From: Microcystaceae cyanobacterium
Lineage (GTDB): Bacteria; Cyanobacteriota; Cyanobacteriia; Cyanobacteriales; Microcystaceae
Assembly (NCBI GenBank): GCA_041746575.1
Contig: JBGTGT010000115.1
Location: 1-64,000, forward strand
Length of the DNA: 64,000 nucleotides
Direction: 5' to 3'
The stretch's first letter is position 1; each line of letters starts with the position of its first letter. The position numbers are program-made. Of the stretch, positions 30,001 to 36,000 are shown in pieces.

Positions 30001-33000
30001 AACAAACCCATTTTTTTGATCTTGATTGCTATTTTAGCAGGGGGATCAATGGCAGTTTATTCGATATCCTCAGCTAATTTTGGGCTTAAGACAGCAGAAT
30101 TAATTGCCTTTCAACAATTAGGAGCAATCATCATATATCTAAGCTGTTTTGGTCGAGATTTATTTCGCCGTTAGGAGTTCATCACGTGTTAACCACTCAA
30201 GAAAGAAAACAACGATATTGGGGGGTACTAATTACTTTAGGAGCAATTATTATCACTTTTATGCTTAATTTAGGCATAAGCATCCCTTTTTTAGATTGTC
30301 CGCTTTTAAGATATACAGGAATCCCTTGTCCTGCGTGGGGATTAACCCGATCATTGATGGCAACTGGAATGGGAGACTTAGAAACAGCGATCGCTTACCA
30401 TGTATTCGGCCCTTTTTTAGGGGTTGCATTTTTGGGTATTGGTTTACATTTGAGCTTAGAATTATTGACAAATCAAAAAATACCTTGTTTTTATCAAAAA
30501 CGAATTCAAAATATAAAAGTCCAATTGTTTTTTTTCTTATTACTATTTAGTTATCATGGTGTTCGTTTAATCGAATTTGGACGGTCAGGGGAACTCTATC
30601 CGTCGTTTTTGGCGTCTCCTTTAGGTAATTGGTTGTGGGGGGGGTAGTAGTAGCCTTTGCCTTAACTCATCCCCTGTAGAGACATTTCTCTACCGATTAC
30701 CCTCATGTTTCTTAAGTGGTGTATTCCGCGTTAATCTTGACATAATCATAACTGAGATCACAGCCCCAAGCGACACCATGACCTGAACCATTGCCGACAC
30801 AGACAGAAATTAATACAGTATCTTTCTTTAAATAAGCTCCTTCTGCCGCTTTTTTCATATATTCACTGGCTTTTGCCCGATCAAAGCCTAAGGGTTGACC
30901 ATTATCCATCATCAGAAAATCCCCCAACTTCACTTGTAACGCTTCCTGATGGAAAGATACCCCTGCTCTGCCGGCGGCGGCGGCAATCCGTCCCCAGTTG
31001 GGATCTCGCCCAAAAATCGCCGATTTTACTAAAGAAGATCCTGCAATCGTGCGGGCAATGCGTCGAGCGGCTTCATCATCCACCGTACCTGTAACTTGAA
31101 TTTCCACTAAACAGGTTGCTCCTTCCCCATCTCTGGCGATCGCTTTCGCTAAATGTTGACAAACCGCCGTTAACATTCCTTCTAAGGTTTCTGCCGCCTT
31201 ACCCCTCTCCGTAATCGCTGTCGTACGCGATTGTCCATTAGCTAAGGCAATAATGGTGTCATTGGTACTGGTGTCCCCATCTACTGTAATTTGATTAAAA
31301 CTTTTATCCACTGCCCGCTTTAACATCTGTTGCCATAATGTAGTAGAAACTAAGGCATCACAGGTAATAAAACCGAGCATGGTTGCCATATTAGGGTGAA
31401 TCATCCCCGATCCCTTGCAAATTCCCCCAATTCGTACAGGACGATCTTCAATCATCGTTTCAAGGGCGATGGTTTTGGGAACTAAATCCGTTGTCATGAT
31501 GGCACGGGAAGCCTGATCTCCGGCACTTGAAGAAAGGGCAGTTACAGCTTGAGCAATACCCGTCCGCATGGACTCCATCTTTATTCGTTGACCAATAACC
31601 CCTGTTGACGCTAAAAGTACATCTTCAGGAGAAATATTAAGAGATTGAGCCGTTAATTGAGCGCATTCGAGAGCATCTTGCCAACCGAGTTCTCCGGTGG
31701 CGGCATTCGCCTGTCCAGAATTGATTAGAATAGCGCGACTACTGGCTTTTTGTTGCAGACGTTGGCGACAATAATCTACACAAGCCGCCCGCACTTCAGT
31801 GGTGGTGAAGACACCTGCCGCAATTGCATCGATATCTGAAATAATCAGGGCCAAATCGGGTAAACCAGAGGGTTTAAGACCTGCCGTAATCCCTGCCGCT
31901 CGATATCCCTTGGGAGCGGTAATATTGCCACTAATTTCCTGCCAATCTGACATACACTGATCCTTATGAGTCGTTGAGGGTTCAAAGCACTATTATTAAG
32001 CAAGGGGGCATCAATGAATCATAAACAAATCTTAAATATTAGCTAGATTTAACAAAGTGATTAGGGATTATTTAGCTCGACTAAAAGCGATCGCTGCTAG
32101 GATAATAAGCAACAGTAAAAAAGCAGGGACGCTTAAGTTAATCCATTCGATCATTAGACTTATTGTGAACTTTAGCGATTCGAGTGAAGACAGGAAACAG
32201 ATAACAGCACTCAGAAAATTTTAAATAATGTATTTGAGCATTAAAAATCATGTCTGATTTAACCACATGGCTTAAAGAGCGAACGGCACTTAATTTATTA
32301 AGTGATGAAACCCTTCAAGGAATAGAACCGTTTTTAGAAGAACAGTGTTATCCGCCTAATTATACGGTAACGGAAGCCGACACGCCACCGACGGGACTTT
32401 ATATTTTGCGAAAGGGATATTTAATCAATCCTCAATCCACCCAATTCACGGTGGGAACAGTTATTAATCTACAGGCATTAATTCTGAATCAACCCGTCCG
32501 TCAAACATTGATTACGACTGAAGACTGTGAAGTTTGGTTTATCCCTGCCACGCAATTTCAAATCGTACTAGAACAATATCCAGAAATCACGCAAGCCTTC
32601 TCTGGCGTCCTCAGCGAAAGATTAGAAAAAGTGAGTGCCGAATTAATCTTTGAACAACAAAGACAAACCATTTTGCGCCCCTATCTTGTCCCGAAAGTGA
32701 AGCGGGGAGTCATTGGGAAAAGTCGCTATGCAATGCGACTGCGATCGCAAATTAAAGAAGCGTCAGAAAATCGCAAACCTGTCTTAATTTTTGGAGAACC
32801 GGGCTTAGAAAAAGATAATATTGCCTCCTTAGTTCATTTTAATTCTTCTTACCGTCGTCAACCAATTGTCAAAATTAATTGTGCCACTTTACAAGTGAGC
32901 GGAGCCGATTTATGGGGCAGAGTTGGGGGTAAAATGGGTTTATTAGAAGCCGTAGGACAAGGCACGTTAATCCTTAATAATATTCAAGAACTTCCCTCCG

Positions 33001-36000
33001 AACTTTATCAACCCCTTGCTGAATTATTAATTCATAACACCTACACGCCTGTCAGTCGTTCGGACACCAATTTATCCCCTCCCAAAATAAATCAAGCCCG
33101 AATTATTCTCATTTCAGAAAAGATTATTAAAGCCATCGATCAAGGAATAGAACAATCGATCAAAGTGCCTCCTTTAAGGGTTCGTAAAGCAGATATCGCA
33201 GATTATGTCAACTATTATGCTAATTTGATTTGTCGTCAACAAAAACGGCGCAAATCCCCTTTAACCGCTGAAGCCTTACGTCGCTTACAAGCCTACGATT
33301 TTCCTAACAACTTAAGAGAATTAGAAAGCTTAGTTGAAAGGGCAATTACCCAATTAGAAGGATGTGCTGAGATTACAGAAGAAGTTCTCTGGCCTTCTCA
33401 GGGCAGAAAACAACAATTTCGAGTCAATTTATTAAATCAATATACCGCTTTGCGAAAATTTTTACGAAGTCCATGGTATCCCGATCGGATTAATTATGGT
33501 TTTACTGCCTTCGTTTTTGCTCTAATTGTTGGTATTTTATTCCTTGCCCCTCAAGATCGTTCAGAGAATTTTGCCCTTAATCTTTTTTGGGCTTGGTGGT
33601 GGCCAATTTGCTTAATTTTATTCCCTTTTTTAGGTCGTATTTGGTGCGCTTTTTGTCCTTTTATGATCTATGGTGAAATCACTCAAAAATTATCACTATG
33701 GTTATGGCCCCGTCAACTCAAAAAATGGCCAAGACAGTCAGCAGAAAAATGGGGAGGATGGTTTTTGTTTGGTTTATTTGTTTTAATTTTACTGTGGGAA
33801 GAACTTTGGAATTTACCCAATACAGCTTATCTTTCAGCTTGTTTATTATTATTAATCACGGCAGGCGCAATGATTTTTTCGGCTATCTTTGAAAGACGGT
33901 TTTGGTGTCGTTATTTATGTCCGATTGGGGGCATGAACGGAATGTTTGCTAAACTATCAATGACTGAATTAAGAGCGCAACAGGGGACTTGTTCAGCAGA
34001 ATGTAACACCTATCAATGTTATAAAGGAGGCCCTAAAAAAGGAGAAGGTTTAGAAACAGGAGGTTGTCCTTTATATTCCCATCCTGCTCAATTAGAAGAC
34101 AATCGAGATTGTGTTTTATGTATGACCTGTTTAAAAGCTTGTCCCCATCGTTCTGTTCAATTTAATTTACGTCCTCCGGCCATTGAACTTTGGACAACCC
34201 ATCAACCGAGAGCGTATGAAGTTGCTCTTTTATTTTTACTTTTAAATCTGGTCTTTTTACACTCTCTTCCTCAACTAAGTCACTTACTAAAATTAAATTT
34301 TAACTTAGAAAATTTTAGCCTGCATTCCCTTGTATCCATTTTACTTTTAAGTGTCCCCGCACTATTACCTTTCCTTGCTTTCAAAATTAGTCAATTTGCC
34401 TTTAATACTTTTTCCTCTCTTAAATCCCGTTCTTTTGTTGAGTTAGCCTATGGTTATCTCCCTCTTGTTTTAGCCGGAAACTTAGCTTATTACCTCCAAT
34501 TGGGGTTAGGAGAAGCCGGAAAAATTATCCCTGTTACCCTCGCAACGTTTGGCGTTTCTGGGGAAGGAATGCCTATCATTATTGCCCATCCTGCTGTCAT
34601 TGCTTTCTTACAAGGAACGACTTTAATTGTTGGCGTCATTTCTAGCATAATAATTACGCAAAAAATTGCCAAACAACCCTTTAAGTTCCTTTTACCTCAA
34701 CATCTTTGTATCATTATTTTAAGTGGGCTGTTTTATCAACTAATTGTTTAATCAAAAATCGCACAAAATCCAAAATTCAAAATCCAAAGACGATATTTAC
34801 GATAGACTAGAGAGAACGTCACCCATTGATTAAATTCTGGTTACCACAAGGGAAAGTTTTAATTCCATGTCCCAACTTGATCTTCGTCAAACCCCTGTTA
34901 CCGAAACCCAACGCATCAAACGACATCAAAACCCTAGTGATAGTGCGCTAGGTTTAGTCTCTACGAGAAGTTACCCTGCTATCGTCGGAACGGCTGATAT
35001 GATGCTTAAATCTGCCGATGTTACCCTTGTCGGATATGAAAAAATTGGCAGTGGTTACTGTACTGCTGTCGTTCGCGGTAATGTGGCGAATGTACGATTA
35101 GCAGTCGAAGAAGGGGCAAGAACAGCAGAACAATTTGGACAATTAATCTCTAAGTTAATTATTCCCCGTCCGATGCCGAATTTAGAAGCTATTTTCCCAA
35201 TTGGCAGTCATTTGGTTGAAATTGCTCGACAACAAAGAGGCTATAGTCGTTTGAGCAATAATTCCATCGGCTTACTAGAAACACGAGGGTTTCCGGCAAT
35301 GGTCGGAGCGGCAGATGCGATGCTAAAATCAGCAGATGTGCAGTTATCTTCCTATGAAACCATTGGTGATGGATTGTGTACAGCGATCATTCGAGGATCA
35401 GTAGCGAATGTAGCAGTGGCAATTGAAGCAGGGATGCAAGAAGCCGATAAAATTGGCGAACTTCACGCCGTTATGGTGATTCCTCGCTTACTAGAAGATT
35501 TAGAACATACCTTACCCATAGCAAGTTGTTGGTTAGATCAACCCGAAGTCTTACCTATTTTAATGCCTAAAACTGAAAAAGAAAAAGAAGTGGTGGTTTT
35601 ACCTGATTCTGAGGTGCAAGCTTTCCCTTTAAAACGGATTCAGGAAAGAGAAGAAATTTTATAATTGTCTCCAGAAATAATGGGATTAAAGCCATCAAAT
35701 TGACGGATGAAAGTAAAGTATTAACAACCGCACTAATTTCAGCAGAAATACCTCATTTTCAAGATCGTACCAGCGATCACTCCTTAAACCATCTTTTAAT
35801 TCGGAAAAATCGCATAATCGTTAAGGTTGTGATCATTCCCATCCCTAAATTTTTAATTGACTTAATACACGTGAGTTCGACGAGGGCAATTATCTCAATT
35901 TTTTGTCCATTCTCATTGGGATTAGGAAAAGGAAAACAAATTCTTGATTGGGGGACTAGCCCCCCAAACCCCCTGCACAAAAAAATTAAATAAAGAAGAC

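Follow-up and report, generated by a model that had tools for sequence, protein, structure and literature searches.

A probable membrane Fe-S protein of cyanobacteria and algae built on a degenerate sigma-54-activator AAA+ domain

Introduction

Can a protein with about nine membrane helices be a regulator of transcription? The question is raised by a gene at positions 32250–34751 (plus strand) of a 64,000-nucleotide stretch of DNA from a Microcystaceae cyanobacterium, hereafter the window, in which argJ and a tandem BMC gene are its neighbours. Its database label is that of a sigma-54 transcription regulator of nitrogen assimilation ('ntrX'). The open reading frame was confirmed, and its 833-residue product (P0001) belongs to clade A of its family, clade B being a paralogous group. 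The name is shared by the family members P0091 and P0022 and by Synechocystis slr1529 ('ntrX', nitrogen assimilation regulatory protein), which is itself very probably a clade-A member because an array probe, translated by eye, fits the C-terminal pattern TF..S....LP.LVA.PA. No functional study of the family was found in the literature searched, and the passages on slr1529 available to us contain no description of an Fe-S membrane module. The genome-wide survey's note had nevertheless described the product as a membrane Fe-S protein with a degenerate AAA+ domain and not a sigma-54 regulator. Both fold and motif anatomy bear out this description, and we hold with high confidence that the protein is a membrane Fe-S protein and not a transcription factor.

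Results

In the AlphaFold2 model (mean pLDDT 90.1), a cNMP fold is followed by a sigma-54-activator AAA+ fold and a membrane module of about nine helices that holds 12 invariant cysteines. Pfam places cNMP_binding at residues 33–110, Sigma54_activat at 155–273 and AAA_lid_14 at 310–383, and also matches Fer4_5. The cNMP-binding fold (32346–32579, plus strand; PF00027, E 1.1e-7) carries substitutions at the Gly-Glu and the Arg of its phosphate-binding cassette (VINLQAL...PVRQT in the query). The Gly-Glu...Arg pattern of a CRP-type pocket occurs in 0/53 clade-A, 0/46 clade-B and 2/40 other loci; the cassette is intact in some distant proteins, e.g., P0307, P0316 and P0319, and several homologues are devoid of the entire domain. 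The long helix that follows (residues 112–145, assigned by DSSP; 32583–32684, plus strand), with its conserved EQERQ..LRPYL, is a possible dimerization or signalling helix as judged from the model.

Residues 155–383 (32712–33398, plus strand) form a bEBP-type AAA+ core and lid by Pfam, alignment and Foldseek. The match to the NtrC1 ATPase domain (3m0e) has a TM score of 0.81 by target at an rmsd of 2.5, and phmmer aligns the query with NifA at E 2e-18. With bEBPs such as NtrC1, PspF, NifA, NtrX and FleQ (PF00158), the protein shares this core and lid, an N-terminal input domain, the Walker A Lys and the sensor II Arg. It differs from them in all that makes an activator. GAFTGA is deleted from the loop 1 region (32904–32942, plus strand), where eight residues are missing relative to NifA and PspF, and a GAFTGA-like motif is found in 0/169 family proteins. 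The Walker B remnant TLILNNI (32964–32984, plus strand) has NN in place of DE, so that the loss of the Walker B acids and of GAFTGA noted earlier (LILNNIQEL) is confirmed by alignment. Arginine fingers (RxDLxxRL) are missing from the query alignment and from all 169 family proteins. No HTH family is among the 13 Pfam matches up to E 1 and no HTH stands behind the AAA+ domain; the protein instead terminates in a membrane helix, with a membrane Fe-S module in the output position at its C-terminus. The claim that Walker A had lost its Thr needs revision. The motif GEPGLEKD (32793–32816, plus strand) is indeed degenerate by alignment, but the missing T/S after the Lys is no lesion because working bEBPs have GxxGxGKE (GESGTGKE in NifA); the real lesions are Gly187 to Glu and DE to NN, while the Lys and an acidic residue are retained.

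The Gly187 column reads E in 40, Q in six and G in six of the 53 clade-A loci, and GxxGxGK[E/D] is violated in the query; GK stands in 6/53 clade-A versus 45/46 clade-B loci. The Walker B columns are N/T/S and N throughout all 53 clade-A loci, and mostly DN in clade B. The Walker A Lys, however, is present in 53/53 clade-A and 45/46 clade-B proteins, the P-loop of clade B is an intact GxGKT (Thr in 46/46), and segments of the nucleotide pocket are near-invariant (G.S at 156–158, Lys188, PPLR.RK.D, N..EL). The sensor II Arg of the query is missing from most algal and clade-B proteins. Since the Walker A Lys is retained and clade B has the full GxGKT, the 'dead' AAA+ domain is probably non-hydrolysing rather than non-binding, as far as sequence can tell.

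A regulator of nitrogen assimilation that depends on sigma-54 (or, like TyrR, on sigma-70) would fit the source names and the bEBP-like fold. Besides the lost motifs, its supposed partner is missing as the survey had claimed: the sigma-54 core-binding domain was found in 0/41 genomes including this one, with 4/14 matches in the control, and the DNA-binding domain model was unmatched in this genome as well (99.78% complete). Moreover, the protein is a polytopic membrane protein and occurs in algal nuclear genomes. Consensus patterns for NtcA, CRP, FNR, ChlR, Fur-like proteins and sigma-54 showed no excess over control upstream of 102 clade-A and 44 clade-B genes; NtcA-like sites were found in 8/102 regions (7.8%) versus 6.2% in the control. 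Scanning the window for promoters and terminators gave nothing above chance level. We hence regard a transcription regulator as extremely improbable and reject the identity of the protein as a sigma-54 activator.

The membrane module opens with a NapH-like four-helix core (residues 409–546; 33474–33887, plus strand; model and TIGR02163) that contains a near-invariant Glu517. A first Cys motif, CxxCP (C466, C469; 33645–33659, plus strand), and a second, CxxxCP (C553, C557; 33906–33923, plus strand), precede a dicluster ferredoxin (Pfam Fer4; 33990–34145, plus strand) with an atypical C581-x3-C585-x4-C590...C606P and a canonical C621xxC624xxC627xxxC631P. Both motifs and the eight ferredoxin cysteines are invariant in 129/129 sequences from cyanobacteria, algae and other bacteria. 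The invariance described in the survey thus stands, although only the second motif is CxxxCP. Mean column conservation over 120 homologues is highest here (0.93–0.95), against 0.74–0.78 for the AAA+ domain, 0.64 for the cNMP domain and 0.72 for the C-terminal bundle.

Of known proteins, NapH/MauN (TIGR02163) and the C-terminal part of NosR/NirI share the four-helix core, the two membrane-proximal Cys pairs and the dicluster ferredoxin. TIGR02163 matches 97/97 membrane modules of the family and the NosR model 36/97. As the survey had reported, the query itself stays below the NCBIfam cut-offs, with 49.1–50.9 bits for NapH/MauN (cut-off 213.05) and 85.9 for NifA (528.85). In contrast to NapH/MauN, its first motif is CxxCP, the spacing of its first cluster is atypical, and it has five extra helices and a fused pseudo-ATPase; neighbours resembling napG, nosZ or mau genes were not seen, nor did a napG/napA or mau operon recur in 110 cyanobacterial loci. 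Unlike NosR/NirI, it has no Pfam match to the periplasmic FMN_bind domain, and it scores 18.2 versus 1000 bits with the NosR model.

A third relative would be CcoG/FixG/RdxA. CcoG and FixG are defined by the CcoG model, a C-terminal Ig-like domain and the cco operon, and have a layout of Cys pairs. The query shows no CcoG model match, no Ig-like domain as in FixG and no cbb3-oxidase (cco) operon nearby. A CcoG-like reductase of Cu(II) or Fe(III) at the cytoplasmic membrane face, serving metalloprotein assembly or metal stress, nonetheless deserves discussion. The layout of Cys pairs and dicluster is the same. Stand-alone membrane modules, which occur without any soluble part, lie near MgtE, CNNM and NicO genes, and some clade-B islands contain Acr3, ArsP and FeoB-like genes. 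In the parts of the literature seen, CcoG is a membrane-bound, ferredoxin-like cupric reductase acting toward the cytosol (PMC8475189), and slr1529 expression fell to 0.29 at high copper. This repression, however, belonged to a broader, general response to stress; the three NCBIfam families that match the membrane module do not include CcoG; and plastocyanin is not associated with the family (22/27 negative and 32/35 positive genomes, with three positives lacking it). A metal reductase therefore appears distinctly unlikely.

The module ends in a family-specific bundle of about five membrane helices in the model (residues 655–832; 34212–34745, plus strand), for which we found no Pfam match and no convincing fold match; its Atlas matches are unnamed and below 0.9. 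These extra helices could be the path of a gated transporter or channel, e.g., for cysteine or a sulfur oxyanion, with the Fe-S and nucleotide sites being regulatory. Some nine membrane helices, conserved polar residues (E517 in the core; E657, H671, H692, E755 and Q788 in the bundle) and the linkage to cysK described below would agree with this. Yet no transporter fold was matched. Foldseek gave no solved structure at E 0.001 for the membrane module (best E 0.11), and VIA-align of the 449-residue module model against 48,161 chains gave a best Z of 7.9 with unrelated helical proteins and none of at least 8, a missing match that does not establish a new fold. Together with the lower conservation of the bundle compared with the Fe-S core, this makes a transporter quite improbable.

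Full-length-grade matches were found in 87/301 genomes of the phylum and in 72/105 of the window's order. With 283/401 genomes of the class Cyanobacteriia, the family is widespread rather than near-core as first proposed. In 27 near-complete genomes without it, a DNA query was also negative, though the same query detected a paralogue of 44% identity. Nor is it absent from small-genome lineages: the small-genome family f24 has carriers in 3/14 (phylum sample) and 17/46 (class sample) genomes, and the three copies inspected all lack the cNMP domain. Outside Cyanobacteriia, the 301-genome sample gave 45 weak matches (best E 1e-18) and none of full length, as the survey had stated for the non-photosynthetic classes. 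Confinement to cyanobacteria does not hold, since the dead-ATPase fusion also occurs in other bacteria (Atlas clusters mostly of Thermodesulfobacteriota), green algae and Chromera. The idea that the protein was repurposed because cyanobacteria lack sigma-54 is not supported either: of 40 non-cyanobacterial metagenome loci, where the same three-domain fusion occurs, none has the DE pair of Walker B, a GAFTGA loop or arginine fingers. In a quick tree without bootstrap, in which seven rows are marked eukaryotic on resemblance only, phototroph sequences fall on one side of a starred branch. The dead ATPase is most likely older than the cyanobacterial clade, because this tree splits phototrophs from non-cyanobacterial fusions that are already degenerate.

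Genomic context separates the two clades. For clade A, 110 cyanobacterial loci showed no recurring neighbour, in agreement with the survey, apart from generic response regulators and the synteny expected among kin. Clade B has a co-oriented cysK within 250 nt in 24/48 loci from 13 families, versus 0/118 in clade A, where a single locus has cysK within 4 kb. The linked cysK passes the TIGR01139 cut-off and is a separate paralogue, with 65–100% identity within the set and 53–60% to two housekeeping copies. Further clade-B neighbours include SQR-like, rhodanese, Tll0287-like, DUF302, YgaP, ArsR, petC, cydAB and extra psbA genes. An SQR-like gene is present in 44/50 clade-B genomes, 16/56 clade-A-only and 1/27 family-negative genomes, and was not found in the present one; the cysK and SQR counts are not independent, as genomes are related and the genes of an island may be transferred together, and the SQR gradient could instead mirror habitat. 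Neither cytochrome bd (21/27 negative, 25/35 positive genomes) nor PFOR above cut-off (19/27 and 23/35; not found in this genome) is associated with the family, and a PRK10717-type cysteine synthase, present in 66/67 genomes, is uninformative. Cyanobacterial sqr clusters with sqr, arsR, petC2, rhodanese, tauE and a variant psbA have been described (PMC11304991, PMC5061849). Clade-B copies lie among such genes, whereas the clade-A gene of the window is outside any such cluster. The parts of both papers seen contain no mention of the gene or of the gene–cysK pair.

Discussion

As the best explanation, held at slightly less than even confidence, we propose an Fe-S electron relay that is anchored in the membrane and gated by a pseudo-ATPase able to bind nucleotide. 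Its two [4Fe-4S] clusters, together with a third site built from the CxxCP/CxxxCP pair, would face the cytoplasm, or the stroma in algae, where the AAA+ domain would also lie. They might relay electrons in the manner of NapH, NosR and CcoG; the soluble partner would probably be ferredoxin, and the other partner would be either the quinone pool of the membrane or a substrate bound by the Cys pairs. The AAA+ remnant would bind an adenine nucleotide without hydrolysis and thereby switch the membrane module, which would replace the HTH as output. The most likely job would be to manage redox when sulfide is present or oxygen is low: clade B may supply or balance reduced sulfur for the adjacent CysK, and clade A, including this gene, would be a stand-alone housekeeping version. 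The link of the second copy to sulfide-handling genes is a hint that the family may take part in redox control, of sulfur or at low oxygen. Against the proposal, however, the P-loop residue Glu187 may keep clade A from binding a triphosphate, most algal and clade-B proteins have lost the sensor II Arg, and the sulfur context is that of clade B, with clade A lacking a recurring neighbour and this genome an SQR-like gene. The cofactor geometry is predicted for a module that no solved structure matches.

A more daring version of this relay, which we consider improbable, is an energy-charge-gated electron valve in the photosynthetic membranes of cyanobacteria and algae. It would be a ferredoxin:plastoquinone or ferredoxin:sulfane-sulfur oxidoreductase of unsolved fold, switched by ATP/ADP through a fossil sigma-54 activator, inherited from anaerobic bacteria, kept in plastid-bearing algae and duplicated into a sulfide-specialised, CysK-coupled form. 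Of the cyanobacteria sampled, about 70% possess this highly conserved membrane Fe-S protein, as do many green algae, and databases misname it as a transcription factor. The correction takes a false regulator out of nitrogen networks and puts a redox candidate into photosynthetic membranes. It also offers an example of a transcription-motor ATPase that has been re-employed, probably to switch a membrane protein in response to nucleotide.

Signals might also flow in the opposite direction, with the Fe-S module as input of a membrane redox or sulfide sensor and the pseudo-ATPase and cNMP domains as an output that binds partners, in clade B perhaps CysK. A sensor role of this sort has been proposed for NosR/RdxB-type proteins, and the NosR model matches noted above, the lack of an extracytoplasmic redox domain able to accept electrons and an AAA+ surface under selection despite dead catalysis would agree with it. 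On the other hand, variable inputs precede the AAA+ domain, the cNMP fold being one of them and GAF, REC or HisKA domains being swapped or added in distant homologues; bEBPs pass their signals in this direction. The membrane module exists without any soluble part, and conservation peaks in the membrane part. We thus consider a sensor unlikely, and the electron relay remains our preferred reading. In the sources seen in part, slr1529 is known from transcriptome tables and from a knockout without growth defect. In one autotrophic condition this mutant grew as wild type (mu max 0.0465 per h, p 0.74), a point against the proposed relay. For such a knockout, silent under standard growth, the cysK/SQR link of clade B points to sulfide, polysulfide and anoxia. 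Its metabolite profile was changed at 72 h, an observation that would be in line with a sensor.

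Results and discussion

The query gene (32250-34751, + strand; 833 aa), annotated as a sigma-54 regulator, encodes a protein that is misannotated and is built from known modules in a new variant. Its identity is secure; as to its role, the best-supported reading would make it an Fe-S electron relay, gated by a nucleotide and sited at the cytoplasmic membrane face. The gene is divergent from argJ (30712-31953), and a tandem BMC-domain gene lies 115 nt beyond it. Pfam assigns cNMP_binding to residues 33-110, Sigma54_activat to residues 155-273 and AAA_lid_14 to residues 310-383, and Fer4_5 is matched as well; the NCBIfam models for bacterial enhancer-binding proteins (bEBPs) and for NapH both match far under their cut-offs. 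In the AlphaFold2 model, with a mean pLDDT of 90.1 for the full protein and 94.5 for the membrane module, bEBP ATPase domains superpose on the AAA+ part. The cNMP pocket is devoid of the Gly-Glu and Arg residues, and several homologues have no cNMP domain at all. Elsewhere in the window, the ORF at 28358-29161 (-; 267 aa) appears by eye to be vWA-domain-like with a PEP-CTERM-type tail, and that at 38558-39292 (-) starts as a TPR protein and ends, again by eye, with a CHAT-like tail, perhaps the product of a deletion or a frameshift.

A degenerate AAA+ domain under selection

Aligned with NifA and PspF, the query has GEPGLEKD where GESGTGKE stands, LILNN in place of the Walker B LFLDE, and an 8-residue deletion in the GAFTGA loop, and both the arginine-finger segment and the HTH are absent. 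These features bear out the degenerate AAA+ domain proposed in the genome-wide survey's note, with one correction. That note also counted the missing Thr/Ser after the Walker A Lys as a lesion, which is normal in bEBPs; what damages the P-loop is the change of Gly187 to Glu. Sigma-54, which the note holds to be missing from Cyanobacteriia, was found in none of the 41 genomes searched, and a second model was likewise without a match in the query's genome, which agrees with PMC3162934. A role as transcription factor, in keeping with the annotation, is highly improbable for the query protein.

At least 95% conservation is seen at 70 of 233 AAA+ positions across 120 homologues, and Lys188 is kept in all 53 loci of clade A, the clade of the query; the domain, degenerate as it is, is therefore under selection. 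The conserved positions fall in stretches which, in bEBPs, form the walls of the nucleotide cleft. In the paralogous clade B, the P-loop is a canonical GxGKT and Walker B mostly reads DN, the pattern that would be expected for nucleotide binding without hydrolysis. Three proteins of 1115-1121 aa (P0004, P0007, P0012; one named Trichocoleus) have the linker helix and AAA+ domain duplicated in tandem, the first copy keeping an intact GxGK and a Walker B Asp. In a genome that does not belong to the photosynthetic class, one gene (L206:4252-6210) encodes a protein with a tandem pair of strong sigma-54-activator AAA+ domains and no membrane part.

The membrane Fe-S module and a proposed relay

Conservation in the family centres on the membrane module (mean 0.93-0.95). 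Its 12 Cys do not vary across a diverse set of 129 sequences; they form a CxxCP motif, a CxxxCP motif and a dicluster ferredoxin in which one spacing is atypical. Each of the 97 modules in the alignment scores against NapH/MauN models, under the cut-off. Counting helices in the predicted models would put both Cys pairs and the ferredoxin on the AAA+ side of the membrane, and E517, H671, H692 and E755 near the opposite side. As a rival reading of the protein, a redox sensor is unlikely. About five more helices follow the Fe-S core in the query, for which family and fold searches gave no match; that they form part of a gated transporter is quite unlikely.

In bEBPs, signals run from an input domain via AAA+ to a C-terminal output, and in the proposed relay the membrane module would take the place of the HTH. 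The input domains before AAA+ differ (cNMP, GAF, REC, HisKA), and the membrane module is also found without other domains. NapH and NosR function in electron transfer. Modelled on these proteins and on CcoG, the relay might pass electrons between a soluble carrier and a quinone or a Cys-bound substrate; the CcoG comparison draws on PMC8475189. Neither cytochrome bd nor PFOR nor plastocyanin co-occurs with the family. PFOR has no match at all in the query's genome, and in the reduced g7 genomes G209, G215 and G269 (g7 being a genus) it has decayed into pseudogene fragments with many stops.

Stand-alone membrane modules of about 450 aa occur on non-cyanobacterial contigs (L150:2591-3946; L151, L152, L154, L157, L160, L161, L162, L164), usually directly after a trypsin-PDZ protease and with MgtE and CNNM genes close by; they may be one lineage. 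Many genomes of the non-photosynthetic family f33 have a protein of about 430 aa that weakly matches the membrane module only. Single cases (P0333, P0364, P0273, P0340, P0451) join the module, or the protein as a whole, to further domains, these being cytochrome c (SoxA/TsdA-like), HATPase_c_2, EF-hands, AIM24 and PF01058.

Distribution

Full-length-grade matches were found in 87 of 301 phylum genomes including the query's, a count from which 52 matches were dropped as weak (45 from beyond the class and 7 from the order itself), and in 72 of 105 genomes of the query's order; in the class, 283 of 401 genomes were positive at E 1e-50. The 27 near-complete negative genomes stayed negative with a DNA query able to detect 44%-identical paralogues, and in our sample whole genera were without the family (g4, 0/4; g7, 0/4; g20, 0/6). 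The small-genome family f24 was positive in 17 of 46 genomes; the survey note had counted 0 of 33 in a small-genome family, f45. The family is therefore widespread yet patchy, rather than near-core or near-universal as that note had it.

The same three-domain architecture exists outside cyanobacteria, with Atlas clusters mostly from Thermodesulfobacteriota; the Walker B DE, GAFTGA and arginine fingers were found in none of 40 non-cyanobacterial full-length loci. Eukaryotes among the matches listed, drawn partly from 120 of 1604, include Edaphochlamys, Volvox, Chlamydomonas incerta, Trebouxia, Coccomyxa, Chlorella, Klebsormidium, Ostreococcus and Chromera, and some of their proteins have N-terminal extensions that by eye resemble plastid-targeting signals. 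When 80 membrane modules were placed in a quick tree, all phototroph sequences fell on one side of a branch with 100% SH-aLRT; support was 86 for clade A, 100 for clade B and 88 for an algal plus small-genome group.

Prior data and genomic context

The literature searched, with subscription papers and several supplements beyond reach, yielded no functional study of the family. Synechocystis slr1529 ('ntrX') is tied to the family via common source names and an array probe. In published data, slr1529 is mildly down under iron deprivation, with an antisense RNA, and down to 0.29 in high copper, and its knockout altered the metabolome at 72 h with growth unchanged. That the protein acts on metals as a reductase is rather unlikely.

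No recurring neighbour was found in 110 clade-A loci. In clade B, a co-oriented cysK lies within 250 nt in 24 of 48 loci, from 13 families (23 of the 40 loci whose sequence runs on for 1200 nt or more downstream), and in none of 118 clade-A loci; this cysK passes TIGR01139 and is a separate paralogue. Clade-B genes also recur beside SQR-like (8 loci) and rhodanese (7-8) genes, and with Tll0287-like, DUF302, YgaP, ArsR, petC, cydAB and nitronate monooxygenase genes as well as extra psbA and aldehyde deformylase copies. An SQR-like gene was present in 44 of 50 clade-B genomes against 9 of 30 clade-A-only genomes in a first survey, and in 9 of 32 clade-A-only against 1 of 27 family-negative genomes in a second (clade-A-only merged, 16 of 56), with genomes picked by family status and with kin and mobile islands not independent. 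The clade-B context is the only contextual evidence; it points to sulfide and low oxygen and gives a direct route to test function. Against this reading, the query's genome yielded neither a clade-B copy nor an SQR-like gene. An extra acsF-like gene close to two of three small-genome copies inspected hints further at low oxygen. Clusters of sqr with petC2, arsR and rhodanese (PMC11304991, PMC5061849) and the induction of cysK2 by polysulfide in PCC 7002 (PMC12466478) are on record; the available portions of these three papers do not mention the family gene.

In the sulfide/low-oxygen islands that carry the clade-B gene with its cysK paralogue (L211-L250, L191-L197), a NUDIX-like gene of no firm family often occurs (10 of 48 loci), as does DUF3122 (9 of 48). 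One cyanobacterial clade-B gene has upstream of it a cluster that resembles heterodisulfide reductase (L197:7516-10937; CCG, Fer4, flavoprotein, DUF4405), and a seemingly isolated nifH copy (L196:8636-9526) adjoins another clade-B gene and DUF2214.
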